Positions 40,462 to 57,899 of a stretch of DNA of 64,000 bases are shown piece after piece; the stretch's first letter is position 1; every line of letters starts with the position of its first letter. Source of the stretch: Corallococcus exiguus (GTDB taxonomy: Bacteria; Myxococcota; Myxococcia; Myxococcales; Myxococcaceae); the NCBI RefSeq assembly GCF_051058965.1, contig NZ_CP183924.1. One strand, given 5' to 3'. The translations under genes were made by a program, and so were the position numbers. The notes beneath the pieces are model-generated. The model was not told the DNA's origin and ran no database searches. It saw nothing but the letters and a program-made list of their open reading frames with translations.

Positions 40462-40992
40462 CTAGCGGGTGGCGGCCAGGAGGAACTCGGCCACCCGCTC
40501 CAGGGAGGTGGTGCGCTCGGCCTCCACCGGGAAGCGCCGGAACAGCTCCGGTGGCCCGTGCAGGATGAGCGGCTTGCCATAGCGCAAGGCCAGGACGGCC
40601 TCCGCCGCGGTGCCGGCGCCCCCGGGCAGCGCGACCAGGGCATGCGGCGTCAGCACGTTGATGTGGTTGCGGCTCATGGGGTCCGTGCCCTGCTCCCCGC
40701 TGAGCGGCAGGTGGGTGTAGATGGGGATTTCGATGTCCGTGTTCGGGTAGCCGGCCCGGGGCTGGTAACGGCCGTCCGCGCCCACGGTGCCGGGGATGAT
40801 GCCGATGGCCGCCCCCCGCCGCCCCTCCACCTGGACGAAGGCCCCCGCCGCCACGCTCATGACGCCGCCACCCGCGCCGGTGAGCAGGTCGAACCCGGCC
40901 TCCGCAATCCACCGCGCCAGGGGGACGACCCACTCGTCGTGGGAGTGCGCCCCGGAGCCGAACACTCCGATGATGCGGCGGTGTCTGCGCAT
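40462..40992 (-). CDS. TIGR00725-family / LOG-like (SLOG superfamily) Rossmann-fold protein
   Basis: IGVFGSGA...PGG...GTAAE is the LOG/SLOG pattern. 176 aa. Confidence 0.7.
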   Translation of the reverse strand: MRRHRRIIGVFGSGAHSHDEWVVPLARWIAEAGFDLLTGAGGGVMSVAAGAFVQVEGRRGAAIGIIPGTVGADGRYQPRAGYPNTDIEIPIYTHLPLSGEQGTDPMSRNHINVLTPHALVALPGGAGTAAEAVLALRYGKPLILHGPPELFRRFPVEAERTTSLERVAEFLLAATR

Positions 40993-41234
40993 GACTGCGT
41001 CCTCCCCGAAAAACTGGAACTACGTGAGCCCCTGTTCCATGCGAATCCCCGGCCAACGCCGCAAGGGCTCACGGACCGGCGTGCGTCCTGATTCCCGTCC
41101 ACCCGTGGAAGGTGCGTGGCGCGAGCGTCGGCCAGCCGTCGCTTCCCTCCTCCCGGAGCGCCAGACGTTCCCGCACGACCCGTGATGTCGGACCCCTCCT
41201 CTACCTTCCTCGCAGGTGAGCAAGGAGGCTGCCC

Positions 41235-41540
41235 ATGTTCGACGCCTGTGGAGGTTGTGAGCGCCGTGGCACCGCCGGAGAGGTGTTCGACTGGTGCGCG
41301 CACTGCGAATTGTCCCTGTGTCCCGAGTGCCTCGTGCGCGGCTGCTGCGGCAGCGCACCCGCGGACTCCGGGCGGGGCGCCCCCAAGGAGCTGCCCGACC
41401 CGCCACCTCCCGAGCGCGAAGTCCTCCCGGAGGACTTCGGGGGCCGGTGCTGCACGCATGCCCGCGCGGTGGCCTGCTCCTGCGCCTTCCACTGGGTCTG
41501 CACGCGCCACGGCGACCTGCACGTGGGCACCCACGACTGA
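41235..41540 (+). CDS. small cysteine-rich protein (13 Cys in 101 aa; putative zinc-ribbon / treble-clef metal-binding protein)
   Basis: A strong SD, AAGGAGG, lies 7 nt upstream of the ATG. GC3 is very high. The cysteine pattern is CGGC...CAHCELSLCPECLVRGCC...CC...CSC...C. Confidence 0.6.
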   Translation: MFDACGGCERRGTAGEVFDWCAHCELSLCPECLVRGCCGSAPADSGRGAPKELPDPPPPEREVLPEDFGGRCCTHARAVACSCAFHWVCTRHGDLHVGTHD

Positions 41541-41627
41541 GGGCGTTGACACACGGGCGGCCTGTCCACGAGGTTTCCGCCTTCTTTCAGGCATTCCCGC
41601 CCGGACACAGCACGGAGCACGAACACC

Positions 41628-42020
41628 ATGGGTCTCGCCGAACGGTCGGAGATGGCCGCGTTCAAGAACGACACCTTCGCCTCGAAGGTGGCGGAGCTGA
41701 AGGGGGCCGCGGCGGGCGCGGACATCCAGGTGACGCTGGACGAGGCGAGCTTCACCACCGTGGCCGCCATCCAGATGCTCTCCAACGGCGTCTTCGACCG
41801 GCTCATCGACGACATGAAGTCCGTCTGTAGCGACGCCATCGGAAAGCAGGCCGTCCGGGAAGGCATCCAGACGTTGCACATCGTCCACACGGACGCGCCG
41901 GGATTCACGCTGGACCTGACGGACGGCACGCTCACCCTGCGCGCGAAGGTGGACGGCTCGCTCGGCGAGGACCTGCCGGGCTACGGCACGTACCGGGCCT
42001 TCCTGCTGAAGAAGCTGTAG
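41628..42020 (+). CDS. hypothetical protein
   Basis: 130 aa. GC3 is high and GGAG lies upstream. I recognise no motif. Confidence 0.5.
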   Translation: MGLAERSEMAAFKNDTFASKVAELKGAAAGADIQVTLDEASFTTVAAIQMLSNGVFDRLIDDMKSVCSDAIGKQAVREGIQTLHIVHTDAPGFTLDLTDGTLTLRAKVDGSLGEDLPGYGTYRAFLLKKL

Positions 42021-42093
42021 GCCCCGCACGGCCTCACCGACCGGAGGGCCGCTTTGTCAGCGGTGTCCTCCGGCACGGGACATTCCGTCCGGC

Positions 42094-45000
42094 TCAGGGC
42101 ACGTCCAGCACGACGCCCTGCCCCGGAACGGCCATCACCCAGCGGACGACGTCGGGCTTGCCGCCGCAGGTGACGCGCACCTCGAACTCGCGCCCCGCGG
42201 GCATCTGGTTGGACAGGGGCGTCTGGCCCTCCAGCACCTGCGAGCCCAGCGCCACGCGGCAGCCCTGGGCACCGGTGATGCTGAGCATGCCCCGGGCCTC
42301 CGCCTGGGGCGGGGCGTCCGCGAGCGTGCGCAGGTCGATGTGCTCCGACCTCGGCACCTTGCCGAAGCGGTGCAGCTTGCCGTCCACGGCCGTGGAGATG
42401 AGCCAGCCGGCGTTGCCTTCGGGCAGGCCCTGGCTCGCATCCAGCAGGACGCCGGACACGTAGACGCGCTCACCCTCCTGGGCGTTGCGCACCTCCACGC
42501 CGCCCTTGGGCAGCAGGAACACCAGCGCGAGCCCCGCGAGCACCAGGCCCACACCGCCCACGATGAGCCCCTTGCGCTGACCGGGCGTCAGTCCCTTCCC
42601 CGTCGCTTCGGCGCCGGGCACCGGAGCCGTGGGGGAGACCGCGTGGACGGGGGCCGGCGGCGCGGCCACGGGAGCCGCCGGAGGCCGCGCGGGCGGGGCC
42701 ACGGGGGCGGACACCGGCGGAGCATGCGGGGCAGCCACGTGCGGCGGCGGCGCGGCCACGGGGTGGTGTCCCCCATAGGCCGCGTGGGAGCCGGTCGGCG
42801 GCGGCGCATGGTGCCCCAGCGGCGGCGGCGGGGCGCTTCCCTGCTGCGCGTGGGCGGCCCCGTATTGCGCGTGGGTGCCCCCATGCGACGGGGGCGCTGC
42901 CACGGGGTGCGGCTGCGGAGCCGCGGTCAGCGGGGCGACAGAGGGCACCGCCACCGACGGACGCGCGGGCGCCTGCGGCGGAGGCCCCACGCGCGTGGGC
43001 ACGTTGGCGGACGCCGCGGGGCGCACCGCGGTGGGCGGCGGCATCGGCGACGTGGGCGGAGGCGCGGCCGGGCGCGACGGACGGGGCGCGGCGGCCACGG
43101 GCGGTGCAACCGGAGGCGCGGAGGCCATGGGCGGCCCGTTGACGGAAACGACCTCGGTGCCCCGCTCGGCGGGCTCCGGCGGGGAAGCCACCGGGGGCGG
43201 CTCCATCCGGGGCATGCTGCCGGAACCGCCGCGCACGGGCGGACGGGACAGGTCCGACGGGGCCCGCATGTCGCTGCCCGAGCCCGTGCTCACGTTGCGC
43301 GAGTGCGAGCCCGTGCCCGGCATCAGCGCCCGGGGGTTGGAGCCCGTCCCCGGGCCGGCGATGGACGACGGCGCGTACTCGGAGAGCCGGTCGCCCAGCG
43401 TCTCCTTGAAGAACTGCGCCACCGACGCGGGCGACGAGGACAGCCGGTGGTGCGTGATGACGGCTTCAATCTCCTCGCGCATCGCCGCCGCGGAGGGCGT
43501 GCGCCGCGCCGGGTCCTTCACCAGCGCGCGCAGGATGAGGTCCGACACGTCCTGCGGGATGTGGGGCCGCAGCTGCGAGGGCACCGGCGCGGGCTCGCGC
43601 ACGATGGCCGCGAGCGTGGCCGCGTCATGGTCCCGGCGGAACGGCAGCTGGCCGGTGAGCAGTTCGAAGAGCACCACGCCCAGCGCGAACACGTCGTTGC
43701 GCCAGTCCAGCGGGCGGCCGCTGGCGGCCTCCGGGGAGAGGTACGAAATCTTCCCCTTGATGACGCCCGCCTGCGTGTGCTCCTCGCCCTGCACCTTGGC
43801 GATGCCGAAGTCCGACAGCTTGATGGCGCCGTCCAGCGACACCAGCACGTTGTGGGGGCTGACGTCGCGGTGCACCACCGGGTGCGCCGTGCCGGAAGGG
43901 TCCACGTAGCTGTGCGCGTAGTGCAGGCCCGCGGCGACCTCCGCCACGATGCGCAGCGCGTGCTCCAGCGGCAGCGCCATGCCCTTGCGGCGCAGCTCCG
44001 TGAGCAGGCGCTTCAGGTCCGGGCCGCGCACGTACTCCATCAGGATGTACGCCACGCCGTCCGTCACGCCCACGTCGAAGGTCTGCACGACGTTGGGGTG
44101 CGTGAGGCGCGCGTTGGCGCGGGCCTCCGCGAAGAGCATGTCGACGAACTCAGGATTCTCAGCGAACTGCGCGAGAATCTTCTTCATCACCACGAACTTC
44201 TCGAAGCCCTTCACGCCCTGCTGCTTGGCGAGAAACACTTCCGCCATGCCGCCCTGCCCCAGCCGGCGGATGATCTGCAGCCGCGCGCCGCTGGTGTGCG
44301 TGTCCGTGGCTGACGAGCCCCGGGCGCCGGGGTCCGTGTTGGTGGAGCCGAAGAGGTACTGACTGAGCGCGCGCTGCTCCAGCGCCTCGATGTCCTCCAG
44401 CGGCTTGTCGGTGAGCGGCGTGCGCGCGAGCAGCCCCTGGAACTGCGCGAGCGCCGGAGCCCGGGAGCTGCCGCCGCAGACGGGGCACACGCGCTCCATG
44501 GTGCCCTTGGCGCGCAGCACCTCCAGGTACTCGGAGGTCTGGATGCGCTGGTGGGTGACCTGGCCGCAGTTGCGGCAGTCACACGGCAGCCACAGCGTGG
44601 CCAGCTTCGCGGGCAGCGTCTTGGTGGACTTCGCCAGCACGGCCAGCAGCGGCGGCGGCACGCGGCAGAGCACCACCTGGGCGCCCTGCGCGGCCACCTC
44701 CAGCACCTGTTCGATGCGCGGCAGCGCTTCCTGCTCCACCACGCTCACGTGGCAGCAGTCGAACGCGACGCGCCCCTCCAGGCCGGACGCCAGCCGGCGC
44801 ACGTTGAGGTCGCCCTTGAGCGTACTGGCCAGGGTGATGAAGGTGATGTCGTCCTGGACGATCTTCAGGTGCGACGAGAGCTCGGACGGCTCCGACGGGA
44901 TGCCGGAGCGCAGGTAGCGCAGCACCGCGGGATCCACCGCGGAGAACTGCTGGCGGCGCGCGAAGTCGAAGAACTCCGTGGGCTCGTCCGCGAACTCCAG

Positions 45001-45438
45001 CGGCTGGGAGCACACCGGGCACTGGTGCGGCGGGGCCCCGCCCTGCTCCAGCACCTTCGCCTCCTCCACCAGGCGGACCAGCCGCAGCCGGTCCTCCTTG
45101 CAGAAGCGGCACGTGTACGGCGCCAACAGCGAGAGCACGCGCGCGACGCCCGCGAAGCCCTCCACCATGTTGAGCTGATCCACCACCACCGGCGGCGCGT
45201 TGACGACGTACAGCCCCGACACGCCCTGCGGCGGGTGGCCGGCGAACTCGATCCACCGGCGCACGCCGAAGGAGCTGATCCGCTCCACCAGGCCCAGGTC
45301 CACCACCACCAGGCCCTGGATGCCCTTGGAGGCTGGCGTGAGGGGGAAGGTTTCGTCGATCACCCCGGCCACGCGCACGTGGGTCAGACTGCCCACGCGC
45401 AGGGAGGTGATGCTGGCATTGGAAGTTTGGCTCTCCAC
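42094..45438 (-). CDS. membrane Ser/Thr protein kinase with two N-terminal STAS (anti-sigma-antagonist-like) domains, each followed by a CxxC...CxxC zinc ribbon, and a C-terminal periplasmic domain
   Basis: Hanks motifs: GQGGMAEVFLAK, VVMKKI, HRDVSPHNVLV, DFG and SYLSPE. STAS1 is SLTHVRVAGVIDETF...VVDLGLVERISSFGV, followed by CRFC...CPVC. STAS2 is followed by CDCRNCG...CPVCG. After the kinase come a Pro/Ala-rich linker, a TM helix (LIVGGVGLVLAGLALVFLL) and a periplasmic domain of about 170 aa. The preferred start is GTG at 45438, with GAGGG upstream. The track ORF runs to 45519. Confidence 0.8.
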   Translation of the reverse strand: MESQTSNASITSLRVGSLTHVRVAGVIDETFPLTPASKGIQGLVVVDLGLVERISSFGVRRWIEFAGHPPQGVSGLYVVNAPPVVVDQLNMVEGFAGVARVLSLLAPYTCRFCKEDRLRLVRLVEEAKVLEQGGAPPHQCPVCSQPLEFADEPTEFFDFARRQQFSAVDPAVLRYLRSGIPSEPSELSSHLKIVQDDITFITLASTLKGDLNVRRLASGLEGRVAFDCCHVSVVEQEALPRIEQVLEVAAQGAQVVLCRVPPPLLAVLAKSTKTLPAKLATLWLPCDCRNCGQVTHQRIQTSEYLEVLRAKGTMERVCPVCGGSSRAPALAQFQGLLARTPLTDKPLEDIEALEQRALSQYLFGSTNTDPGARGSSATDTHTSGARLQIIRRLGQGGMAEVFLAKQQGVKGFEKFVVMKKILAQFAENPEFVDMLFAEARANARLTHPNVVQTFDVGVTDGVAYILMEYVRGPDLKRLLTELRRKGMALPLEHALRIVAEVAAGLHYAHSYVDPSGTAHPVVHRDVSPHNVLVSLDGAIKLSDFGIAKVQGEEHTQAGVIKGKISYLSPEAASGRPLDWRNDVFALGVVLFELLTGQLPFRRDHDAATLAAIVREPAPVPSQLRPHIPQDVSDLILRALVKDPARRTPSAAAMREEIEAVITHHRLSSSPASVAQFFKETLGDRLSEYAPSSIAGPGTGSNPRALMPGTGSHSRNVSTGSGSDMRAPSDLSRPPVRGGSGSMPRMEPPPVASPPEPAERGTEVVSVNGPPMASAPPVAPPVAAAPRPSRPAAPPPTSPMPPPTAVRPAASANVPTRVGPPPQAPARPSVAVPSVAPLTAAPQPHPVAAPPSHGGTHAQYGAAHAQQGSAPPPPLGHHAPPPTGSHAAYGGHHPVAAPPPHVAAPHAPPVSAPVAPPARPPAAPVAAPPAPVHAVSPTAPVPGAEATGKGLTPGQRKGLIVGGVGLVLAGLALVFLLPKGGVEVRNAQEGERVYVSGVLLDASQGLPEGNAGWLISTAVDGKLHRFGKVPRSEHIDLRTLADAPPQAEARGMLSITGAQGCRVALGSQVLEGQTPLSNQMPAGREFEVRVTCGGKPDVVRWVMAVPGQGVVLDVP

Positions 45439-45442
45439 CCGC

Positions 45443-46285
45443 CTACCCTCGTTCCAGACTGAACAGCAGCGACTTGGGCTGCGCGGCCCGGCGGCGACCG
45501 TCGCCCAGGTCCACTCCACAGGCGAACTGTGTGCGCTTTCCCGGAGTCACCCGCACCGCCACTGCGTCGCTGTGCTCCAGGATGCGCCGCAGACCCAGGC
45601 CCGCGCCACCACCCGAAGCATCTACCTGCGCCTTCTCACCCCAGGCCTTCACCACCCGCACCAACGGTGACACCGACAGGCGGCCGAAGCGGTCCGTCGC
45701 CTCCAGCCACGCCCTGCCGTCCGCCACCGCCCACGACACCAGGCAGCGGTCTTCATCCGCCACCGCCTGCACCTGGCCGCGCCGGTGGGCGTACTTCGGC
45801 TCGCCGCTTCCGTCCACTGGCGCGTCGAGCAGCGCGTTCACGCCAATCTCATGGACGACATCCGCCACCCGGCTGGCCGCGCCCTTGGAGCCGCCAGCCT
45901 GGAGGACGGCCTCGGCCGCGCGCTCGCCCACGGCCGTCACCTCCGCCACGCTGCCCAGCCACGCCACGGACGTGGCTGCCTCCTTGGGGATCATGGGCTC
46001 GCCGCGCAACAGCGCGCTCAACAGCCGCGCCTCCCAGGCGGACGGCTGGCCGCCCTCACGGGTGGCCAGCAGCAGCGCCGGGGGACGGCGTTCCAGGAGC
46101 GCGGCGTGGGCGGGAGTGAACCGCCCGTCGAACAGCACCAGCTGCGGCGCCGCGTCGTCACCGCGCCCCAACAACAGGCCGTCCCGGGCCAGCACTCCGG
46201 AGGCCTTCTCCAGCGCCTCCGGCGTGAGCGTCGTGTCCGGCGTCAACTTCAGGGGAGCATCCTTCACGGCGGCGACGGTATCCAA
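45443..46285 (-). CDS. GHKL-ATPase (HATPase_c) protein, RsbW/SpoIIAB-like anti-sigma-factor kinase candidate
   Basis: An N-box-like HEIGVNAL and a G2-box GGGAGLGL. It lies 4 nt upstream of the STAS-kinase gene and 8 nt downstream of the TonB-dependent receptor gene. Confidence 0.55.
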   Translation of the reverse strand: MDTVAAVKDAPLKLTPDTTLTPEALEKASGVLARDGLLLGRGDDAAPQLVLFDGRFTPAHAALLERRPPALLLATREGGQPSAWEARLLSALLRGEPMIPKEAATSVAWLGSVAEVTAVGERAAEAVLQAGGSKGAASRVADVVHEIGVNALLDAPVDGSGEPKYAHRRGQVQAVADEDRCLVSWAVADGRAWLEATDRFGRLSVSPLVRVVKAWGEKAQVDASGGGAGLGLRRILEHSDAVAVRVTPGKRTQFACGVDLGDGRRRAAQPKSLLFSLERG

Positions 46286-46293
46286 ACAGCGCC

Positions 46294-48813
46294 CTAATAA
46301 TGGAGTCGAACTTCTGTGAAGACGCCCAGCGGCGGTGCGGGGAAGCCGTGGGACTCCTCGTACTTCGCGTTGAAGAGGTTCGTGCCCAACAGTGACACCG
46401 CCACGCGCTCGTGGACGTTGAAGCCCACGCGCGCGGTCGCGGTGATGTAGCTGGGCAGCTTCACGCGGGTGGTGGTGCCGGCGTTCTCGTCCACCACGAA
46501 GCCCGGATCATACCGGGCGCCCACGAACAGGCCGTAGAGCTCCACGAAGGCGAACTTGCCGATGTTGGTGCGGCCGCGCAGGTAGACGCGGTGGCTGGGC
46601 GCGTAGTCCAGCGGGTAGCCGGATCCGCCGCCCACCGGCAGCGCCTGGGCGTCCAGGAACTGGTAGGCCACGTCAAAGGACGAGTTGAGGGACGGCACCT
46701 GCGCCGCCGCTTCCGCCTCGAAGCCCGCCACGCGCGCGTCGCCCAGGTTCTTGAACTGGGACGTGGAGCCGAAGAGGAGCTCCTGATTGATGAAGTTGCG
46801 GGCGCGGTTGTAGAAGCCCGTGCCCGTCAGGCGCACCCTGCGGTCCAGCGGCCAGAAGTCCACCGCCGCCTCCACCGTGTCCAGCGTCTCCGCGCGCAGG
46901 GACGGGTTGCCCAGGAGCGTCGCGGCGTACATCTGCTGGTTGATGGCCAGCTCCGCCAGCGTGGGCGCGCGGAAGGCGCGGCCGTAGTTGGTGCGCAGCG
47001 TGAGCAGCTCCGGGATGGCGTGGAACACGACGCTGGCGCGCGGGGACACCTGATCCGTCTTCGCCTCCCAGACCTTGGAGGGGATCTGGTAGTTGTCGTA
47101 GCGAGCGCCCGCGCCCACCACCAGCCGGTCCGTGATGCGGTACTCCGCGTCCACGAAGCCGCCCAGGATGGTCTGCTTCGTGTCGTCCAGGGTCAGGCCG
47201 GGCAGGATGTTCTGGTTGTTCACCTGGTCGGCCTTCACGTCGCCGCCGACGGTGACGGAGAGCTTGTCCAGGGAGAACAGCGCGCGCGCCTCACCGCCCA
47301 GGCGGCTGCGCTTGCCCAGCGTGTCCTCCAGGGCGCCGGTGATTTCATTCTCCAGCGTCACGTTGCGGCGCTTGAAGAAGGCGTAGGCCTGGGCGAACAC
47401 GCGCACGTTGTCCGTCACCTGCTGATCCAGCTGCAGGGCGGTGTTCAGGTTCTGGACGTGCTCGTTGTCCTGCGCGGTGTAGTGGCAGCGGCCGCAGTTG
47501 CCCACGGTGGAGATGTTCTGACCACCGGGCCGGCCGATGTTGCCGTCCGTGAAGTCCGCGTCCAGCGCGAGAGGACCCACGCGGACCTTGCCGTTCACCT
47601 GGTGGACCAGCGAGTCCTCGTTGGTGTCCGTCTGGTTCAGCTGCGGGTTGTTGAAGAGCTGCGGGCCGTCCGAGCCGAAGCCGTAGTAGCCGAGCAGCGC
47701 CTCCACCGGGCCGCCGCGGCCGGCGACGTTGGTCTGCAGGCGCCAGGTCTTGTCCTGGCCCGCGAGGATGCGCGCGTCGGCGCCCACGTTCTGGCCCTTG
47801 GCGATGAGGTCCGCGGGCTGGCGCTCGATGATGTTGATGACGCCGCTGAAGGCGTTGGAGCCGTAGAGCGACGAGCCCGGGCCGCGGATGACTTCCACCT
47901 GCTTCAGGTTGGTGAGCGGCGTCGTCTCATCCGCGTAGAACTGGCCCGTCCAGGGGTCCGTCAGCGGACGGCCGTCCTTGAGGAGCAGGAGGCGGTTGGA
48001 CAGGTAGTTGGAGCCCAGGCCGCGCGCGCTCACCGCCGCCTTGCGCATGGAGCCCCGGCGGCACTCCATGCCGGGGAAGTACTGGATGGCCTCGCAGAGC
48101 GAGAACTGGCCGGTGCCCTCCAGTTCCTCCGCGGGGATCCACGACACCGTGAGGGGCACGTCGGAGATGCGCTGGCTGCGCTTGGACGCCGTGGTGACGA
48201 CGGCCTCGCTCAGCGCCCTGTTGATGTTCTGCTCCAGGTCGTCGCCACCGCCCAGGTCCGGGCCGTCCAGGCCGGAGAGGCTGGAGGGCGGCGGCAGCGC
48301 GCGGTCGGAGGTGGGCTCCGTGAAGGGCGCGCGGTCCGGGACGTTGTCCGCCGTGCGCGGCTGTGACGACGGGAGCACCGCGCCGGCACCCAGCGTGGGC
48401 GCGGGCGGCGGGTTGGACGGGATGTCCGAAGTCAGCGGCCCGTCATACGGCGACGGCGAGGCCACGGGCAGCGGATCCGAAACGGACGGGCCAGGGCCGG
48501 CCACGGGGGCGAGCGGCGCGGGCGGCGGCTCGGTGGCGAGCGCCGGCGGCTGCGCGGCGGGCTCGTCCCCGGGAATGGGCTCCACGTCCGTCGGCGGGGG
48601 CTGCGCCTTCGCGCCCCGGCGCGTCTTCGCCGTGCGCGGAGGCTTCGCGCCGGGCGTGGCGGCCTTGGCACCCGGCGTGGTCGCCGCGCGCTTGCGGGGG
48701 GCCTTGGTCCGCGTCTTGGGGGCGGGCTCCTGGGCCTCCTGGGCCTGGGCCGTCTCCACCGCGAAGAGGGACAGGGCGCAAACCACCAGGGTCAGGCACG
48801 CGCGCGCGCCCAT
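46294..48813 (-). CDS. TonB-dependent outer-membrane receptor with a long Pro/Ala/Lys-rich N-terminal extension
   Basis: A signal peptide (MGARACLTLVVCALSLFAVETAQA), about 170 aa of low-complexity extension, a plug domain (VVTTA, IRGPGSSLYGSNAFSGVINI), and a barrel ending in the aromatic ...EVRLHY. An internal CGRCH motif is present. Confidence 0.85.
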   Translation of the reverse strand: MGARACLTLVVCALSLFAVETAQAQEAQEPAPKTRTKAPRKRAATTPGAKAATPGAKPPRTAKTRRGAKAQPPPTDVEPIPGDEPAAQPPALATEPPPAPLAPVAGPGPSVSDPLPVASPSPYDGPLTSDIPSNPPPAPTLGAGAVLPSSQPRTADNVPDRAPFTEPTSDRALPPPSSLSGLDGPDLGGGDDLEQNINRALSEAVVTTASKRSQRISDVPLTVSWIPAEELEGTGQFSLCEAIQYFPGMECRRGSMRKAAVSARGLGSNYLSNRLLLLKDGRPLTDPWTGQFYADETTPLTNLKQVEVIRGPGSSLYGSNAFSGVINIIERQPADLIAKGQNVGADARILAGQDKTWRLQTNVAGRGGPVEALLGYYGFGSDGPQLFNNPQLNQTDTNEDSLVHQVNGKVRVGPLALDADFTDGNIGRPGGQNISTVGNCGRCHYTAQDNEHVQNLNTALQLDQQVTDNVRVFAQAYAFFKRRNVTLENEITGALEDTLGKRSRLGGEARALFSLDKLSVTVGGDVKADQVNNQNILPGLTLDDTKQTILGGFVDAEYRITDRLVVGAGARYDNYQIPSKVWEAKTDQVSPRASVVFHAIPELLTLRTNYGRAFRAPTLAELAINQQMYAATLLGNPSLRAETLDTVEAAVDFWPLDRRVRLTGTGFYNRARNFINQELLFGSTSQFKNLGDARVAGFEAEAAAQVPSLNSSFDVAYQFLDAQALPVGGGSGYPLDYAPSHRVYLRGRTNIGKFAFVELYGLFVGARYDPGFVVDENAGTTTRVKLPSYITATARVGFNVHERVAVSLLGTNLFNAKYEESHGFPAPPLGVFTEVRLHY

Positions 48814-49109
48814 CCGACCGGCAAACCCCTTCACCGCGTTGGTGCGCGATCCACCGTACTCAGTCGAGTCCATCGTTCTCAATTCCACGAGGGGAAGCAG
48901 GGGGTATCCGCGGTTCTAGCGCCAGGAACCAGAGCCGGTGCGGCTGGCAATTGTTCTCAGGGATGAGTTTCCACCCCTGAACGGTGGCGTTCCGCTCGAC
49001 TTCTCAAATTACCGCAATAACTCGCCTTAGGCCAAGTCATGGCTGTCGATCGCGGTGAAACACGCGCACGGCGGTGGAAACCCCGTGCGCGGATCAGCTC
49101 ACGGCGCAA

Positions 49110-50036
49110 TCAGTCATCCGGCTGTTCGGCGGAGACGGCCAGGTCGTCCACGAACGGCGGGAGGGCGGGACCCAGCGACTCGGATTGGACGAGCACGGGC
49201 GTCTCCACCCGCAGGTCGGGAGAGTCCGCGAGGACGGGCTGACGGCGCGGGGGGCCCTGGGTGACGAGCTTGCGGAAGTCCTCGAACTCGCGGCCCTGGA
49301 TGCGGGCGAAGGCGTCGAACGGGGCGACCGCACCCACGGAGGACAGGGACTGGGACAACGCGTCTCCCCCGCCCTTCAGGTCCACCAGCACGGCGCCCGG
49401 CACCCGGCTGCTCTTGAAGAGCACCCGCATGTCCTTGGGCACGTGCGCCACCGGAACGAGCGCGGCCTCCGCGCCCTTGGCCTCCAGCATCTTCACCGCC
49501 GACTCCACGTTGGGCACCGGCACCAGCTTGAAGTGCTTCTGGGCATCCAGGTCGCCGCCCAGCACGACGTGGGAGACGAACTTCGGATCCGCGGAGCCCG
49601 CGCCCTTGACCAGCGCCATGCGCTTGCCGGCGAGGTCCTTCACGGTGCCCTTCTGGAGGGAGATGATGGCCCAGCGCTGCTGCGTCTCACCGGCGCGCGG
49701 CGCGTACGCCACCGGCTCCGCCTTGGAGCCCAGCTGCACCGCGGCCCAGCCGTCCACCACGGCGAAGTCGATCTGCCCCTCCCCCACTGCCTTGGAGAAG
49801 TCCTCGTAGCGGCCAAAGCTCTTGGCGCCAACGGGGCGGCCCAGGCTGGCCTCCAGCTTCTGGGCGAGCGCCTCCGCGTACTGGAAGCGCTCCTGACCGT
49901 CCGACAGCGTCGTGGCGAGGAACACGCCCAGCGTGGCCTTTTTCGGCGCGGCGGACGCGGGGCTGGCAACGGAAACGGCGAACAGCACGGCGGCGAGCAG
50001 GAGGCTCCCCCGCGCGACAAGGGATGGCGTCTTCAC
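49110..50036 (-). CDS. periplasmic substrate-binding protein, PhnD/SsuA-like (phosphonate-type ABC SBP fold)
   Basis: A signal peptide (MKTPSLVARGSLLLAAVLFAVSVASPASA) and a two-lobe SBP-like composition. It overlaps the upstream TPR gene by 4 nt (ATGA). Confidence 0.6.
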   Translation of the reverse strand: MKTPSLVARGSLLLAAVLFAVSVASPASAAPKKATLGVFLATTLSDGQERFQYAEALAQKLEASLGRPVGAKSFGRYEDFSKAVGEGQIDFAVVDGWAAVQLGSKAEPVAYAPRAGETQQRWAIISLQKGTVKDLAGKRMALVKGAGSADPKFVSHVVLGGDLDAQKHFKLVPVPNVESAVKMLEAKGAEAALVPVAHVPKDMRVLFKSSRVPGAVLVDLKGGGDALSQSLSSVGAVAPFDAFARIQGREFEDFRKLVTQGPPRRQPVLADSPDLRVETPVLVQSESLGPALPPFVDDLAVSAEQPDD

Positions 50037-52558
50037 GGCGTCTCCTCCGCGACCCCGGTGGCCGGCGTGACGCCCTGCGCGTCACCCAGTCCATAGAGGC
50101 CCTGCAGGCGGTCCTTCCATTCCCGCACCTGGGCAGCGCGGGGGCCCGCGCCAGCGGCCAGGTAGCGGCGCCAGGCGTCCACGGCCTCGGCGGGTTCATG
50201 CCGTCGCTCCTGCGCGTCGATGCCCAGGTTGAGCGAGGCGACAGGTACGGCGGTCTCCAGGCGCTTCCACGTCGCGAGCGCCGAAGCGCTGTCGCCCTGG
50301 CGCCACCCCACGCACGCCAGGTTGTGCTGCACCAGCGCGTCGTCGGGCGTCGCGGCGAGCGCGGCCTTCAGCGCCTTCTCCGACGCCTTCATGTTGCCAG
50401 AGGCGTACGCGAGCGCCGCCTCACGCCGCAGCAGCGCGCCGGTGAGGTTGCCCATCCACTTCGGCTGCCCGGGCATGGGCTTCTTCTGCGCGGCGGTGAG
50501 CAGCTTGCGCGAGGGCGCGACCTTGCCCTGACGGTAGAGCACCCACGCGTCCGCGAGCGCGCGCGTGTTGGGCCACGACCATTCCGGCGCGGGCGTGAGG
50601 GAGCGCTTGAGGCCCGCGGTGGCCTCCGCGAACTTCCCTTCTTCCGCGCGCGTGAGCGCCCGGGCGAAGGCGGCCAGCTTCGCCACGTCCGCGCGCTTGC
50701 CGGTGCCCAGGCGGTCCACCGCGTCCAGGTCCCGGTTCGCCGCGGCGGCGTCGCCCGTCTCCAGCTTCGCCAGGGCCCGGCGCACCAGCACGCGAGGCAG
50801 GTTCGCCTCCGCCACCTTCGCGGCCGTCTTGGAGGGCCCCGCGTCCGTCAGCCGCTGCACGGCGGCGTCCACCTGGCCCAGCTCCACTTCCGCGAGCGCG
50901 GCGCCCGCGGACGCTTCCGCGCGCTGATCCGGCTCCTGCGTGGCCTCACCAGACTGGGTGAACGCGGCGAGCGCGGCCTGCGCATCGCCACCGCCCAGCC
51001 GGGCGTAGCCGAGCAACAGGTGCTCGCGCCAGGTCGCGCCCGGCAGCGTCACCGCGCCCTCCATCACCTTGCGGGCCTCCGCGAACTGGTGGCTGTCCAG
51101 GAGCGCCGCGCCCAGCCGGCGGGCCATGGGCACGGAGCGGTCCAGGTCATACGCGCGGCGCAGGTCACGCACGGCGTCTTCCAGGCGCTGGGTGCCGGCG
51201 CGATCTCTCGCGCGGTGGGCCAGGGCCCGGGCCAGCCACTGCTTCGCGCCGGGGTGGTTGGGTTCCACCTGGAGCGCGCTGCCGTAGTCCTCGATGGCCT
51301 GATCCCACTGGCCGGTGGCGAAGTGATCCGCGCCCAGCAGCACGTGGCCCAGCGCCTGGCGCGGGGCCATCTCCACCACGCGCCGGTGCACCTCCACCGC
51401 GCGCTGGTAGCGGCCGGCGCGGCGGTTGACGGAGCCCAGCGTCGCCCACAGCTCCAGGCTGCCGCCGCCCGACTTCACGGCGGACTCCAGGAACTGGATG
51501 GCCTCCTCGTGGCGCGCCTGCGCCTGGAGCGCCTTGCCCACGGCGATCTGTCCCAGGAGCAGGCCCGGCTGCAGCTCCAGCACCTTGCGGAACTCCGCTT
51601 CCGCCTGCGCGGGCTGCTTCTGCGCGAGCCGCACGTCACCCATCAAGAGGTGCGCGGCGGGCGTGGAGCCCAGCTTCATCAGGGCGGTGGCCTGCAGGTC
51701 CGCGCGCGGCACGTCGCCCGCGGCCAGGTACAGGCGCGCGAGGCGCTCCTTCGGCTCCGCCACCTGCGGGAACTTCGTCACCAGCCGCTCCAGGAGCGCG
51801 CGGGACTCCGGCACGTGGCCTTCCATCTCCAGCACGGCCGCGAGGCCGATCTGCGCCGTCGCGGACTCGGCCCGCCCGGCCTGCGCCTTCTCGAACGAGG
51901 CGCGCGCGGCGACAGCGTCCCGGCGGATGAGATGCGCCTTGCCCAGCAGCTCGTGGATCTGGAAGTCGTTGCCCGCGAGCTTCTCCGGGCGCAGCGTCAG
52001 GTAGCGCTGCAGCCGCGTCACGGCGCGGTTCCCGTCCTGGACGTACAGGTAATAGCTGGCCAGGTAGTAGTGGACGATGAGGTGGTCCGGCTGATCCGCG
52101 GCGGCCACCTGCTCCAGCACCGGCACCGCCTCCTGGAAGCGGCGCAGCTTGAAGTACGCGGTGCCCAGCGGGTACGCGAGCGACAGCTCCTGCGGGTTCT
52201 GCGCGAACACCGGCGCAAGGCGCGTCACCGTTCGCTGGAAGTCCTGGAGCGCGTTGGCGGCGCTGCCCAGGCCCGCGGCGGCGAACACGGACTGGGGCTC
52301 CTGCGTGAGCGCCTGCTCGAAGAGCTGGAGCGCCTTCTTGAACTTCTCCTCCGCCTCCTTCTTGTCACCCTTGGAGGCGGCGGCGTTGGCGGACACGAGG
52401 GCCTGCTCGCCCTGCTCCGTCATGCGCTGCGCCTCGGTGGCGGGCGGCGGGCGGAACTGGGCGAGCGCCGCCGGCGGACCGGACAGGGTGGCCAGCAGGG
52501 CGAGCGCGGTGGAGACGCGGCGCGGGGAACGAAGGAATGGGCGCATGCGATTCGTCAA
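50033..52558 (-). CDS. secreted tetratricopeptide-repeat protein (about 20 TPR units)
   Basis: A signal peptide followed by many W/Y-L-G-A-Y TPR-like repeats. Its start ATG overlaps the upstream PP2C stop (ATGA). Confidence 0.75.
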   Translation of the reverse strand: MTNRMRPFLRSPRRVSTALALLATLSGPPAALAQFRPPPATEAQRMTEQGEQALVSANAAASKGDKKEAEEKFKKALQLFEQALTQEPQSVFAAAGLGSAANALQDFQRTVTRLAPVFAQNPQELSLAYPLGTAYFKLRRFQEAVPVLEQVAAADQPDHLIVHYYLASYYLYVQDGNRAVTRLQRYLTLRPEKLAGNDFQIHELLGKAHLIRRDAVAARASFEKAQAGRAESATAQIGLAAVLEMEGHVPESRALLERLVTKFPQVAEPKERLARLYLAAGDVPRADLQATALMKLGSTPAAHLLMGDVRLAQKQPAQAEAEFRKVLELQPGLLLGQIAVGKALQAQARHEEAIQFLESAVKSGGGSLELWATLGSVNRRAGRYQRAVEVHRRVVEMAPRQALGHVLLGADHFATGQWDQAIEDYGSALQVEPNHPGAKQWLARALAHRARDRAGTQRLEDAVRDLRRAYDLDRSVPMARRLGAALLDSHQFAEARKVMEGAVTLPGATWREHLLLGYARLGGGDAQAALAAFTQSGEATQEPDQRAEASAGAALAEVELGQVDAAVQRLTDAGPSKTAAKVAEANLPRVLVRRALAKLETGDAAAANRDLDAVDRLGTGKRADVAKLAAFARALTRAEEGKFAEATAGLKRSLTPAPEWSWPNTRALADAWVLYRQGKVAPSRKLLTAAQKKPMPGQPKWMGNLTGALLRREAALAYASGNMKASEKALKAALAATPDDALVQHNLACVGWRQGDSASALATWKRLETAVPVASLNLGIDAQERRHEPAEAVDAWRRYLAAGAGPRAAQVREWKDRLQGLYGLGDAQGVTPATGVAEETP

Positions 52559-54147
52559 GGCGAGGGGGCGGGGCTGAATTCGGCGACGATGACGGTGATG
52601 TCGTCGCGCTGGGGCTGGCCGGCGCTGTACGCGCGCACGTCCGCGAGGAGCGCGTCGCGAAGGGCGTCGGCGGGGAGGTGGGCGTGGGTCTGGAGCGCGG
52701 CGGCCAGCCGCTGCGTGCCGTAGAGCCGGTTGGCACCGTCGCGCGCCTCGGTGAGGCCGTCCGTGTACCAGACGACGATGTCACCGGGGCTCAGCTGCGC
52801 CTGGCGCGACGTGAACTGCGACGCCACGTTCGCGCCCAGCAGCGGACCGCGCGCCGGCAGCGACGAAATCTGCCGCGTGTTCCGGTTGTAGACGGCCGCC
52901 GCCGGGTGGGCGCCCGCCGCGTAGTCAATCTGGCCGCTGTACACGTCGATGACCGCGAGCGCGCTGGACATCTGGTGCTCGCCGCGGCCCACGTTGGCCA
53001 GCGTCACGTTGAGCGCGGTGATCAGCATCTGCGCGTGCACCTGCGACGGCTCACGCAGCGTCATGGCGGAGGCGAAGCCGCTGGTGGCGCTGGTGGCGAC
53101 CAGCGACGTGGACAGGCCGTGGCCCGTCACGTCTCCGATGCCAATCACCACGCGCCGGTCGTCCAGCGCGGCGCGGAACCACCAGTCGCCGCCGCACGCG
53201 TCCGCGGGCACCACCAGCCCGGCCAGCCGCAGCGGGCCCACCGTCACGGCCTCGCGGCCCGGCAGGAGCGTCTCCTGCACCGTGCGCGCGAGCGACACCT
53301 CGCGCTCCAGCTGCGCCTTGGCGCGCACGTCCTCCAGCAGGACCTTGATGCGCTCCGCCATGTGGTTGAACACCACGCCCAGCGTCGTCACCTCGCGGCC
53401 CGCGCCCGGCGCAGTGCCCGCGCGAGCGCCCAGGTCACCGGCGGCCAGCTGCATCACGCGGTGGGTGAGCACGCCCAGCGGCTTGGTGATGCGGCGGCTC
53501 TGGAAGGCGGCCAGCACGCCGGCCAGGACGACGAAGCCCACGCCCAGCCCGACAATGCGCAGCGTGTTGGCGCGCACCGCGGCGCGGTTGGTCTCCTCCA
53601 ACTCATGCAGCTGCTTCTGCAGGTCCTCCAGCGAGTAGCTGATGACGACCACGCCCTTGCCGGCCTGCGAGCCGTAGTCGAGCGGCTCCTGGAACTCGAA
53701 GACGGGCTGGCCCTGGAAGAAGGCGCTGGCCCAGCGGCGCTCCGCGGTGCGGCCTCCGGAGGACTCGCCCAGCTTGGCGGACGGGTCGCTGTCCGCGACG
53801 AGCTGCCCGTCCGCGTCGAACATCTGCACGCGCAGGATGTTTCGGTTGTCCGCGATGATGGAGCGCGCCACTTCCGTGAGGAACGCGTAGTTGTTGTCGC
53901 GCAGGCTGGTGGCGGAGGTGAGCGCCAGCGTGTGGCTCACCGTCTGGCCCAGTTCGCGCGCCTGGGACTGGAGCCGCTGCGTGAAGCGGTCCGACGTCGC
54001 GGTGAGCTGCGCCTCCGTCGTCTTCGCGGACAGCGCGGCCAGCAGGCCCACGATCACGATGACCAGCGCGCCCGTGGTGAGCAGCAGCAGCTGATCCAAC
54101 CGGAGCCCGCGGATGGCCGCCACGTTGGGCAGCTCTCCGGCCTCCAT
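52555..54147 (-). CDS. membrane sensor Ser/Thr phosphatase: periplasmic sensor domain - HAMP - PP2C (SpoIIE/RsbU family)
   Basis: TM1 (LLLLTTGALVIVIVGLLAAL), a periplasmic region of about 150 aa, TM2, HAMP (ITKPLGVLTHRVMQLAAGDL), and the PP2C motifs IGDVTGHG and DGLTE. Confidence 0.8.
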   Translation of the reverse strand: MEAGELPNVAAIRGLRLDQLLLLTTGALVIVIVGLLAALSAKTTEAQLTATSDRFTQRLQSQARELGQTVSHTLALTSATSLRDNNYAFLTEVARSIIADNRNILRVQMFDADGQLVADSDPSAKLGESSGGRTAERRWASAFFQGQPVFEFQEPLDYGSQAGKGVVVISYSLEDLQKQLHELEETNRAAVRANTLRIVGLGVGFVVLAGVLAAFQSRRITKPLGVLTHRVMQLAAGDLGARAGTAPGAGREVTTLGVVFNHMAERIKVLLEDVRAKAQLEREVSLARTVQETLLPGREAVTVGPLRLAGLVVPADACGGDWWFRAALDDRRVVIGIGDVTGHGLSTSLVATSATSGFASAMTLREPSQVHAQMLITALNVTLANVGRGEHQMSSALAVIDVYSGQIDYAAGAHPAAAVYNRNTRQISSLPARGPLLGANVASQFTSRQAQLSPGDIVVWYTDGLTEARDGANRLYGTQRLAAALQTHAHLPADALRDALLADVRAYSAGQPQRDDITVIVAEFSPAPSP

Positions 54148-54699
54148 GGGCGCGATGACCGTGCTCGTGGGCTCCGTCGCCGGCAGCCCCACCGAGCCCG
54201 TCAGCCGGGTGGCCGTGTTCTCCCCACGCAGCCCGGTGAGCTCCCGGGAATGGGTGCCGGTGTACTCCGGTGGAGGAGGCGGGGTGCCGGGCGCCGCATC
54301 GGATGCATCAGGTGATTCGGGCACGGGATCGAGGCGCGGGTTCGTACGGGACAAAGGCACACCTGGGGGAGCCCGCGTCGGAGAACGCGGTCGGGGCGGG
54401 GCGGACTGTATCTCACTTCCTGATTGACGCGAGGAGTCCACCTGTCGGGCTATTCCTCGCGGTCGCCCCCTCACCCGCCCCCCCAACGGCCGTGCGATCA
54501 GCCCGGACCGGGAGCGTCCAACCGCCTCCTGGAAGCAGCACGTCACGAGGGCATGGATGAGTTCCGCTCATTGCCGCGTCGCGCCACCCGGGGGCAGAAA
54601 GGTGCTGGCGAACACCCGTGACATCAGGGTCCTTGAGTCGGGAGGCCGCGTTCGGAGTATAGGGGCGTCCCTTTCTTTCCCCTTCGAGGTCGTCCGCCC

Positions 54700-55707
54700 G
54701 TGTCTCGGCCCCGGTTGATCAAAGAGAACTCCGCGCCGCTCTCCCTGCCCCGAGAGCAGCTCATTCGCATCCATGACCTGATGGTGAAGGCGCGCGTCCT
54801 GGAGGAGCGCCTGATCCAGATGTACAAGCAGGGCCACGGCTACTTCTGGATCGGCGGCCCCGGTGAGGAGGCGTTCAACGTCCCCCTGGGCATGCTGATG
54901 AAGGTCGGCGAGGGCCCGGCCTACGACTACCTGCACGCGCACTACCGTCAGTCCGCGACGCTGCTCGCCATGGGCGAGGAGCCCATCGGGGCGCTGCGGC
55001 AGATGAAGAACACGGCCACGGACCCCTACTCCGGCGGCCGCAACTTCGCGGGCCACTTCAGCCGGCGCTCGAAGAACATCGCGCCCGTCACCTCCCCCAT
55101 CGAGGTGCAGTACGCCGTCGCGCCGGGCACGGCCATGGCCCAGAAGCGCCACGGCGGCGACGGCATCACCATCGTCACCGGCGGCGACGCGGGCACGGCC
55201 GAGGGCGATTTCGCCAGCTGCCTCATCTGGAGCAGCCGTCCGGCCAACCCGCTGCCCATCCTGATCATCGTCACCAACAACAAGTGGGGCATCAGCACCA
55301 CTTCGGACGGCCAGCACGGCGAGACGAACATCAGCGACCGCGCGCGCGCCTTCAACATCCAGGCGAAGACCATCAACGGCAATGATCCGGTGGAGTCCTA
55401 CCAGGAGATCCAGGCCGCGATGGAGTACGTGCGCAAGGAGCGCAAGCCCTTCTTCATCGAGGCTCGCGTGTCCCGCCTGTACGGGCACTCGTCCGCGTCC
55501 GGCGCCAACTTCGTGAACGAGGAGCAGGACTGCCTGCGCCTGTTCGAGGCGCGGCTGGAGCAGGAAGGCGTCCTCAACCGCGAGCAGATGGACGAGGCGC
55601 GCACCCGGTATTCAGAGGAGCTGGCCGCCGCCGCGCGCACCGTGCGCGACGAGCCGCAGCCCTCTGGCGACTCCATCTGGGAACACATCTACGCGGAGAA
55701 GAAATAA
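54700..55707 (+). CDS. 2-oxo-acid dehydrogenase E1 component alpha subunit (TPP-dependent)
   Basis: The TPP-binding GDG-X(~28)-N motif (TGGDAGTAEGDF...VTNNKWGIS). The start is GTG at 54700 and is uncertain. Confidence 0.85.
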   Translation: MSRPRLIKENSAPLSLPREQLIRIHDLMVKARVLEERLIQMYKQGHGYFWIGGPGEEAFNVPLGMLMKVGEGPAYDYLHAHYRQSATLLAMGEEPIGALRQMKNTATDPYSGGRNFAGHFSRRSKNIAPVTSPIEVQYAVAPGTAMAQKRHGGDGITIVTGGDAGTAEGDFASCLIWSSRPANPLPILIIVTNNKWGISTTSDGQHGETNISDRARAFNIQAKTINGNDPVESYQEIQAAMEYVRKERKPFFIEARVSRLYGHSSASGANFVNEEQDCLRLFEARLEQEGVLNREQMDEARTRYSEELAAAARTVRDEPQPSGDSIWEHIYAEKK

Positions 55708-55709
55708 CC

Positions 55710-57415: not shown

Positions 57416-57772
57416 TCAGCGCTTGAAGCTCGCGATGACGCGGCGCAGGCGCTCGTGGTCCTCTTCGCTCACGTCGATGAAGCGCACGCCGATGGCCTCC
57501 GCCTCGTCGCGCACCCATGCGACGACGGCGGTGAGGTGGAAGTCCTCCCCGTCGATGACCATGGCCAGCCGCACCTGCGCGCCCACGTCGTAGGACTTGC
57601 GCGTGCGCAGGCACAGACCGCCAGCGGACACATTCAGGGAGTAGGCCCGCAGCGCGCGCGCCGCGTCCTCCATCTGCTCGAAGCGCACTTCGAACCGCGC
57701 CGCCACGCGCTCCTCGGCGCGACGGTTCATGTACGGGTCTGGCTCCACCGGCCCATCCAACTTCGTGTTCAT
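57416..57772 (-). CDS. PilZ-domain (c-di-GMP-binding) protein
   Basis: RRAEERV (the RxxxR motif) and NVSAGG (the D/NxSxGG motif). Start chosen at MNTKLDGPV. Confidence 0.65.
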   Translation of the reverse strand: MNTKLDGPVEPDPYMNRRAEERVAARFEVRFEQMEDAARALRAYSLNVSAGGLCLRTRKSYDVGAQVRLAMVIDGEDFHLTAVVAWVRDEAEAIGVRFIDVSEEDHERLRRVIASFKR

Positions 57773-57899
57773 GCGCACCCTGACCCCCTCGGTTCTCGGA
57801 CCGGAAGTGTCGGCTGGTTTCCAGGCCCGGTTCAAGGGCCCACGGACTACGGAATGGCTCGTGTAAGTCCCAGGCTACTTCGAAGCCAGGAGTTTCCGG

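Follow-up and report, generated by a model that had tools for sequence, protein, structure and literature searches.

In a 64,000-nucleotide (nt) stretch of the Corallococcus exiguus genome (NCBI RefSeq assembly GCF_051058965.1, contig NZ_CP183924.1; hereafter the window, meaning the whole stretch analysed), six minus-strand genes encode, in 5′ to 3′ order, a HAMP-PP2C sensor phosphatase, a TPR protein, a PhnD-like binding protein, a TonB-dependent receptor, a protein of 280 amino acids (aa) and a 1114-aa kinase. On balance we favour reading this locus as a partner-switching-type phospho-switch in which the STAS component is built into the effector, and the effector is a Hanks-type Ser/Thr kinase, not a sigma factor. 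The gene content, the predicted folds, the conserved motifs and the conserved adjacency of the genes are directly established. An earlier sequence-only reading of the same DNA had proposed a PP2C, GHKL and STAS triad here; its parts are indeed present and adjacent across genera, although the GHKL and STAS assignments are out of reach of Pfam and NCBIfam and need structure prediction. The six genes are as follows.

52555..54147, minus strand, membrane sensor phosphatase HAMP-PP2C, orthologue of MXAN_4562
50033..52558, minus strand, secreted multi-TPR protein of ~840 aa, starting at the TTGA overlap or at ATG 52546
49110..50036, minus strand, orphan PhnD-family periplasmic binding protein (Pfam Phosphonate-bd)
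46294..48888 (conserved ATG at 48873), minus strand, TonB-dependent receptor, orthologue of MXAN_4559
45443..46285, minus strand, 280-aa cytoplasmic protein, orthologue of MXAN_4558
42094..45438, minus strand, membrane Hanks-type kinase of 1114 aa, inferred orthologue of MXAN_4557

A scan of one genome per species, with the 280-aa protein family as query, yielded 61 loci, and the named ones all belong to the Myxococcaceae/Archangiaceae (Corallococcus, Myxococcus, Pyxidicoccus, Citreicoccus, Archangium, Vitiosangium and Hyalangium). Of the 31 species-representative loci whose flanks are complete, 28 have the six genes in colinear order, and these span at least seven genera, which answers in the affirmative the question of conserved order that the sequence-only reading had put to related genomes. 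The STAS-kinase gene directly follows the 280-aa gene wherever this could be scored (40/40 loci), and the receptor gene directly precedes it in 48/53. Within the locus the kinase domain is the best-conserved part, with 87–92% identity where the GHKL protein retains 52–57%.

Because the variant loci keep the GHKL protein and the STAS-kinase together, we regard this pair as the fixed core; it usually comes with a phosphatase tied to a sensor and with a binding protein of the periplasm, and the receptor is a frequent accessory. The smallest variant, L056, contains HAMP-PP2C, GHKL and kinase genes only. In L049 and L053 the sensor is swapped for a HAMP-HisKA-HATPase_c-4×receiver-SpoIIE hybrid and PhnD for an SBP_bac_8 protein; these hybrids (L049:4553-8740 and L053:4306-8529) are ~1,400 aa long with SpoIIE at the C terminus, and are followed by SBP_bac_8 and then the GHKL-kinase pair. 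SBP_bac_8 also lies directly upstream of the pair in L047, where no sensor was identified. In two further loci a Metallophos gene lies upstream, of receptor-GHKL-kinase in L050 (L050:2921-3772) and of GHKL-kinase in L054 (L054:4802-5638), and this calcineurin-like phosphoesterase may be a non-homologous replacement for the phosphatase. In L062, from a nanopore assembly, the kinase is frameshifted and the upstream gene is uninformative. The scan also returned BNCN01000007.1 (L032), titled ‘Comamonas sp. KCTC 72670’, where the six genes are colinear and of Myxococcus type, with identities of 78% for PP2C and 89% for the kinase domain; this assembly is probably mislabelled or contaminated.

The kinase is laid out on the minus strand as follows.

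45109..45417, minus strand, STAS1 (predicted structure), with the invariant Ser56 at 45271..45273
45010..45111, minus strand, first Cys4 ribbon, part of the kinase N-terminal repeat
44569..44871, minus strand, STAS2, part of the kinase N-terminal repeat
44476..44577, minus strand, second Cys4 ribbon, part of the kinase N-terminal repeat
43480..44277, minus strand, kinase domain (Pfam Pkinase, 1e-41)
42589..43221, minus strand, Pro/Ala-rich linker
42511..42567, minus strand, transmembrane (TM) segment, aa 958–976 (hydropathy scan)
42097..42510, minus strand, external C-terminal domain of 138 aa (hydropathy scan)

The N terminus of this kinase is predicted to fold as STAS. In Foldseek comparisons its AF2 model, built from a 17-sequence alignment, found SpoIIAA, 4hyl (a Haliangium anti-sigma antagonist), RsbV and RsfB as top matches, with probability 1.0 and target-normalised TM values of 0.59–0.68. 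The Pfam model STAS_2 reaches 18.8 bits on this kinase, below its cut-off of 29.2, and the orthologues P0122, P0124 and P0126 have precomputed Pfam STAS matches on record. The N-terminal region as a whole is a tandem repeat of a STAS domain and a Cys4 ribbon, whose two halves align in register (E 2e-5). Residue conservation was assessed in 53 kinase orthologues extracted from genomes, and in these all eight Cys residues of the two ribbons are invariant, as are K419, D525, N530 and D543 of the kinase domain. Ser56, within the motif R-I-S-S56-F-G-V-R-x-W, is likewise invariant (53/53) and opens the first long helix of STAS1, and STAS2 has no Ser at the matching position. The Ser of ISSFG had been singled out by the sequence-only reading as a candidate phospho-acceptor; it is invariant and located at what we take to be the position of SpoIIAA Ser58. 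Fusion of STAS proteins to eukaryote-like kinases was remarked on in passing for Sorangium in 2010 (PMC2887360).

Pfam failed on the two domains that bear the interpretation, GHKL and STAS, and both were therefore examined by structure. Of the domains that the sequence-only reading had named for checking with hidden Markov models (HMMs), SpoIIE, HAMP, TPR, Phosphonate-bd, Plug/barrel and Pkinase all scored above curated cut-offs, whereas HATPase_c gave nothing and STAS_2 stayed below threshold. The same reading had held that failure to recover HATPase_c or STAS would count against it; at the HMM level that is what was found, and both domains were recovered by the structure-based tests. For the 280-aa protein the predicted structure divides into two domains.

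45950..46258, minus strand, N-terminal flavodoxin/receiver-like alpha/beta domain, residues 10–112 (predicted structure)
45446..45949, minus strand, C-terminal SpoIIAB/RsbW-like GHKL domain (predicted structure)

The C-terminal domain is predicted to have a GHKL fold of the SpoIIAB/RsbW subgroup, with both an N-box and a G2 box. Structure comparison of the 280-aa model gave values of 12.2 for SpoIIAB, 11.0 for UsfX, 10.2 for SiaB, 10.0 for RsbW and 9.2 for the RsbW domain of Rv1364c, and at most 6.3 for the ATP-binding domains of histidine kinases; Foldseek likewise placed SpoIIAB, UsfX, SiaB and RsbW-type proteins on top. Three elements are invariant in the family even at 17–30% identity, namely E146-x-x-x-N150, D198-x-F-G and GGGAGLG; E146 and N150 correspond to the GHKL N-box (putative general-base Glu and Mg-binding Asn) and GGGAGLG to the ATP-lid/G2 box. 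The protein itself shares 96% identity with one from Corallococcus; among 36 distant members of the family, 3 weakly touch HATPase_c_2. Residues 10–112 form a domain of alternating beta and alpha elements, and Response_reg is matched by one of the 36 distant relatives. A canonical receiver domain was considered for this region and rejected; the acceptor Asp of beta3 is not conserved in distant members, and for that reason we call the domain receiver-like only.

The third component of the proposed switch is the phosphatase at the 5′ end of the cluster.

54034..54090, minus strand, TM1, aa 20–38 (hydropathy scan)
53563..54033, minus strand, periplasmic Cache-like domain of ~155 aa (weak dCache/sCache Pfam matches)
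53506..53562, minus strand, TM2, aa 196–214 (hydropathy scan)
53347..53499, minus strand, HAMP domain (Pfam, 3e-9)
52576..53163, minus strand, SpoIIE-type PP2C domain (Pfam SpoIIE PF07228, 3e-39)

Its PF07228 match scores 135 bits against a cut-off of 25, and its best NCBIfam match is SiaA NF038263 (2e-25), which at 89 bits lies below the cut-off of 700. The reading frame remains open upstream to 54546, an extension that we do not regard as coding since its third-position G+C (GC3) is only 0.74. Two TM segments around a periplasmic domain in the phosphatase, and a single TM segment followed by an external C-terminal domain in the kinase, reproduce the topology that had been read from the sequence. 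A 2010 survey lists MXAN_4562 as the sole SpoIIE-type phosphatase of Myxococcus xanthus (PMC2887360).

A phosphatase next to a Hanks-type kinase could also be explained by classical antagonism, in which the PP2C enzyme acts on the activation loop or the substrates of the kinase, and the STAS domains and the 280-aa protein, then a pseudo-kinase, serve as non-catalytic scaffolds. PP2C phosphatases commonly oppose Hanks kinases, as has been discussed for myxobacteria (PMC2887360); the 280-aa protein has a degenerate G1 box (D-x-F-G), and no HMM sees an ATPase in this protein; and the two relatives with an upstream Metallophos gene have no detected SpoIIE gene there. Against this, phosphatases of the SpoIIE/RsbU type, to which this one belongs, have STAS proteins as their known substrates. 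In the GHKL family GGGAGLG persists unchanged even in divergent members, as do the Mg-binding Asn and the putative general-base Glu, and the Ser at the phospho-acceptor position is kept in STAS1 of all 53 orthologues and lost from STAS2. We consider simple antagonism distinctly unlikely.

Similar gene neighbourhoods of the GHKL family recur beyond the clade. A search of 1.84 billion cluster representatives with the family profile recovered 2,496 members at E ≤ 1e-3 and 1,526 at E ≤ 1e-10; the 280-aa protein belongs to a family of ~2,500 clusters that current domain libraries do not recognise. One distant branch was sampled for taxonomy and comprises Chondromyces, Kofleriaceae, Haliangium and unclassified Myxococcota, all labelled hypothetical, along with two labels of metagenome-assembled genomes (MAGs) from outside the phylum. 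In Chondromyces crocatus a family member is followed by a SpoIIE phosphatase and then by a giant FIST×3 protein (L067:9265-14993); in a Kofleriaceae MAG a FIST×3 protein (L068:1-4065) precedes a Hanks kinase with a weak STAS_2 match, which in turn precedes a family member. The giant FIST proteins of these two genomes each contain three FIST N/C domain pairs. On soil metagenome contigs a Hanks kinase gene overlaps that of a family member. A Myxococcales MAG with just 27% identity to this locus in the STAS region has a family member (E 8e-32) that stands divergent beside a STAS-Zn-STAS-Zn-kinase. That the two genes remain neighbours after so much divergence and reshuffling is, on the computational side, the best argument for joint action of the GHKL protein and the STAS-kinase.

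The same observations bear on the idea of a true partner switch with an unlinked target, in which the 280-aa protein would sequester a sigma factor or other enzyme and the STAS-kinase would be its membrane-tethered antagonist. By fold the 280-aa protein comes nearest to SpoIIAB, UsfX and RsbW, which are anti-sigma factors, the extra N-terminal alpha/beta domain has no assigned partner, and the cluster encodes no target. As the sequence-only reading had stated, there is no sigma factor in the cluster or adjoining it, the genes of the cluster and its flanks having been checked, and Pfam found no small free-standing STAS gene in the same interval. The STAS-kinase, however, is the only invariant neighbour of the family in the clade; distant members again adjoin Hanks kinases or SpoIIE phosphatases, not sigma factors; and it is the kinase domain, not the GHKL protein, that has changed least. 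An unlinked target is very unlikely in our view.

The remaining three genes reach across the cell envelope. Within aa ~60–750 of the TPR protein, twenty TPR-type Pfam families match; its short N terminus reads like a signal peptide, and the hydropathy scan flagged no hydrophobic segment there. The PhnD-like protein and the receptor have one N-terminal hydrophobic segment each in the same scan. On the PhnD-like protein only the broad Phosphonate-bd model passed (7e-11, 42 bits against a cut-off of 27), the PhnD equivalog TIGR03431 of NCBIfam scoring 23 bits against a cut-off of 261, and Pfam found genes for neither the permease nor the ATPase of an ATP-binding cassette (ABC) transporter within the cluster or in its flanks. 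Its C-terminal ~55 aa (49110..49280) form a conserved tail beyond the binding-protein fold, which in the alignment ends in (E/D)(Q/T)PDD-COOH with PDD invariant. Acidic C termini are known to dock in the groove of TPR proteins, the gene directly upstream encodes the large TPR protein, and by analogy the tail may be a TPR docking peptide. A sterol-transport function, by likeness to the PhnD and TPR pair BstB/BstC, was tried and set aside: the BstB match reaches 20.6 bits where the cut-off is 350, and BstC is of the TatT type, not a long TPR array.

In the receptor (Pfam Plug 2.5e-18, barrel 3e-44) a signal peptide is followed by a variable Pro/Ala/Lys-rich extension, a conserved APFxxPxxxRxLPP segment, a TonB-box-like EAVVTTA, the plug and a 22-strand-type barrel, and Pfam detected plug and barrel only, without an STN signalling domain. 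The N-terminal extension of ~170 aa noted in the sequence-only reading is present. We rejected it as a conserved signalling domain because in Archangium it is down to about 40–60 aa, and only the short APFxxPxxxRxLPP is conserved. The presence of MXAN_4559 in outer-membrane and vesicle proteomes indicates that the receptor gene is expressed in M. xanthus.

Ahead of the receptor gene, the PhnD/receptor gap measures 221 nt, or 236 nt when counted to the conserved ATG, and contains one feature of note.

49003..49037, minus strand, promoter-like block ACTTGGCC-N18-TAATTT (gap alignment, 15 loci)

This block is kept in Corallococcus, Myxococcus, Pyxidicoccus and Hyalangium, and the Archangium sequence differs. 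A second conserved element of the gap is the context GAGAACGATG around ATG 48873, which is probably the true receptor start. The gap has no strict sigma-70 consensus site in our scan, and terminator-like sites occur at chance level only in a terminator scan. A riboswitch ahead of the receptor gene was rejected, since no Rfam family matches at E ≤ 1 over 41000..56000. In locus L058 the PP2C-TPR-PhnD genes lie on the strand opposite to receptor-GHKL-kinase.

Such features would also suit two systems lying side by side, a TPR/PhnD/receptor system for nutrient uptake and a PP2C/GHKL/STAS-kinase system for signalling, with nothing but shared regulation or chance to link them. The conserved promoter-like block in the long gap and the opposed halves of L058 speak for such a division, as do an ordinary TonB box and plug in a receptor that has no signalling domain, and the existence of a bare PP2C-GHKL-kinase locus (L056). 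The receptor, which the sequence-only reading had counted as part of the locus, is a frequent member, but a dispensable one, five relatives doing without it. The genes of the two supposed systems are nevertheless interleaved, with the 5′ PP2C gene overlapping the TPR gene and the GHKL gene starting 8–26 nt past the receptor stop; their shared colinearity extends over genera; and the binding protein has no inner-membrane transporter in or beside the cluster. Moreover, in the variants without PhnD or receptor, the non-homologous SBP_bac_8 protein occupies the same place, with another type of SpoIIE sensor on one side and the GHKL-kinase pair on the other (L049 and L053), which favours a periplasmic input. 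Mere juxtaposition of uptake and signalling is unlikely.

Under the interpretation we favour, that of a phospho-switch built into the kinase, the 280-aa GHKL protein would bind STAS1 of the membrane kinase and phosphorylate the invariant Ser56, and the HAMP-SpoIIE phosphatase would remove the phosphate. The phosphorylation state of STAS1, together with GHKL binding, would then determine how active the adjacent kinase domain is, or with what it associates; the switch would in this sense gate kinase activity. As envelope input, the TonB-dependent receptor would carry a ligand over the outer membrane, where the orphan PhnD-family protein would capture it, and the large TPR protein may hold this binding protein, possibly via its acidic C-terminal tail. 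The loaded binding protein would dock either on the phosphatase, at its Cache-like domain, or on the kinase, at its external C-terminal domain, and in the phosphatase HAMP would relay the periplasmic signal to the PP2C domain. The protein–protein contacts, the phosphorylation, the direction of regulation and the ligand are what we infer from the established features.

Several observations weigh against this interpretation. The confidence of the STAS model is moderate (pLDDT 77), with Foldseek E-values of 1.6e-3 and above. The GHKL assignment rests on predicted structure because neither Pfam nor NCBIfam matched the 280-aa protein, a phmmer search was likewise empty, and a 34-sequence profile of its family found no match among PDB sequences. 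Its G1 box reads D-x-F-G, not D-x-G-x-G, and this atypical box means that kinase activity of the 280-aa protein is not assured. In the kinase proper, the catalytic loop (43852..43875, aa 523–530) is HRDVSPHN in 53/53 orthologues, and with Ser in place of the Lys of HRDxKxxN the enzyme may be unusual in its chemistry or in its choice of substrate. Five related loci lack the receptor, TPR and PhnD genes, and no SpoIIE gene was detected in the 3–5 kb of available upstream flank of L050 and L054, both from Myxococcaceae MAGs. The promoter-like block and the divergent halves of L058 suggest two transcription units, PP2C-TPR-PhnD and receptor-GHKL-kinase, possibly with read-through, and the single transcription unit assumed in the sequence-only reading is doubtful and not established. 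Finally, the literature searched, subscription journals lying outside its scope, includes no paper on MXAN_4557 or MXAN_4558.

The cluster itself is well delimited. In a window of about 70% G+C, the six open reading frames have coding-type GC3 of 0.87–0.96, which confirms the six co-directional minus-strand genes previously read from the letters, and the block is bounded because both flanking genes lie on the plus strand.

41550..42020, plus strand, flanking gene of unassigned function, on the downstream side of the cluster
54637..55707, plus strand, flanking E1 dehydrogenase gene, on the upstream side

The junctions are tight, as had been noted, although the overlaps described as ATGA are not so lettered: they are TTGA between PP2C and TPR (or an 8-nt gap if the TPR start is the ATG at 52546) and GTGA between TPR and PhnD, corresponding to TTG and GTG starts and not to ATG. 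Between the receptor and 280-aa genes lie 8 nt with a TTG start or 26 nt with a GTG start, and between the 280-aa and kinase genes 4 nt. Further out in the window are an adenylate/guanylate cyclase–AAA_16–TPR protein of ~1,200 aa (35620..39237, minus strand), a SLOG/LOG-like protein (40462..41019, minus strand) and a PilZ-domain protein (57416..57874, minus strand). In a genome-mining table (PMC4902038) a ‘lantipeptide’ cluster is predicted for MXAN_4545–MXAN_4561, an interval that overlaps the locus orthologous to this one. Since the kinase domain gives sub-threshold NCBIfam matches to class III/IV lanthionine synthetases, part of this M. xanthus prediction may be a kinase-domain artefact.

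Among known systems, the Bacillus switches SpoIIE/SpoIIAA/SpoIIAB and RsbU/RsbV/RsbW share with this locus a SpoIIE-type PPM phosphatase, a GHKL protein of the SpoIIAB/RsbW subgroup and a STAS Ser at the start of the first long helix. They differ in that their STAS proteins are free and single-domain, whereas here STAS is duplicated, with a Cys4 zinc ribbon on each copy, and forms one protein with a Hanks kinase; this locus has no sigma factor gene nearby; and the GHKL protein here has diverged too far for HATPase_c_2 and possesses an additional alpha/beta domain at its N terminus. Outputs other than sigma factors are already known for partner switches, from SiaABCD and All4160. In SiaABCD of Pseudomonas aeruginosa the output is a diguanylate cyclase controlled through the free STAS protein SiaC, unlike the Hanks kinase controlled in cis here; the phosphatase falls far short of the SiaA equivalog cut-off, and Pfam found no GGDEF gene in the cluster. 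We know of no receptor, binding-protein or TPR genes in the Sia operon.

The closest experimentally supported analogue is All4160 of Anabaena, a sugar transferase whose N-terminal STAS domain is phosphorylated by a serine kinase and which needs the SpoIIE-type HenR; this control by STAS in cis has both genetic and in vitro support (bioRxiv 10.64898/2026.04.08.717354). The HenR/All4160/Alr3423 system thus resembles ours in joining an N-terminal STAS on an enzyme, a serine kinase and a SpoIIE phosphatase, with the switch acting on the enzyme directly. The enzyme there, however, is a glycosyltransferase and not a protein kinase, HenR is receiver-controlled and not a periplasmic sensor, and the genes are dispersed and include no envelope components.

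On the envelope side, AioX, of the PhnD family, signals to the sensor kinase AioS, and XAC2383, of the same family, is reported to be the signalling partner of the membrane sensor XAC2382. As in these pairs, an orphan PhnD-family protein is here encoded beside a membrane sensor and not an ABC transporter. The 22-strand outer-membrane receptor PahS hands its ligand to the binding protein PahP, which activates the inner-membrane sensor PahK, an order of receptor, binding protein and inner-membrane sensor that our scheme would share. The sensors AioS, XAC2382 and PahK are histidine kinases or a diguanylate cyclase, in contrast to the PP2C phosphatase and Hanks kinase of this locus. FecA/FecR/FecI likewise pairs a TonB-dependent receptor, with an extension ahead of the TonB box, with a signalling pathway encoded alongside it, whereas the extension here is variable and of low complexity, not STN, and there are no anti-sigma or extracytoplasmic function (ECF) sigma genes. 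In the literature covered, we found no paper linking this SpoIIE phosphatase to a STAS-kinase and none placing a TonB-dependent receptor with a partner-switch module.

A wider proposal, which we advance tentatively and hold to be possible but doubtful, is that the 280-aa family constitutes a large unannotated class of partner-switch serine kinases, mainly or wholly of Myxococcota, whose STAS targets are built into Hanks kinases and perhaps giant FIST proteins; two Ser/Thr phosphorylation systems that are normally treated apart would thereby be joined. In the Myxococcaceae it would serve a sigma-independent surface route from a TonB-dependent receptor via a TPR-held PhnD-family protein and HAMP-PP2C to phospho-STAS and the Hanks kinase.

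If the favoured reading is true, it extends partner switching from sigma factors, cyclases and glycosyltransferases to the direct control of a Hanks kinase, with a TonB-dependent receptor joining the known inputs of partner switches. Myxobacteria have about a hundred eukaryote-like kinases, few of them with known inputs, and the locus offers an input path for one (MXAN_4557–4562). Since MXAN_4562 is reported as the sole SpoIIE-type phosphatase of M. xanthus (PMC2887360), its substrate would at the same time be identified by default. For the GHKL family of ~2,500 sequence clusters missed by domain libraries, this would be the first functional handle.

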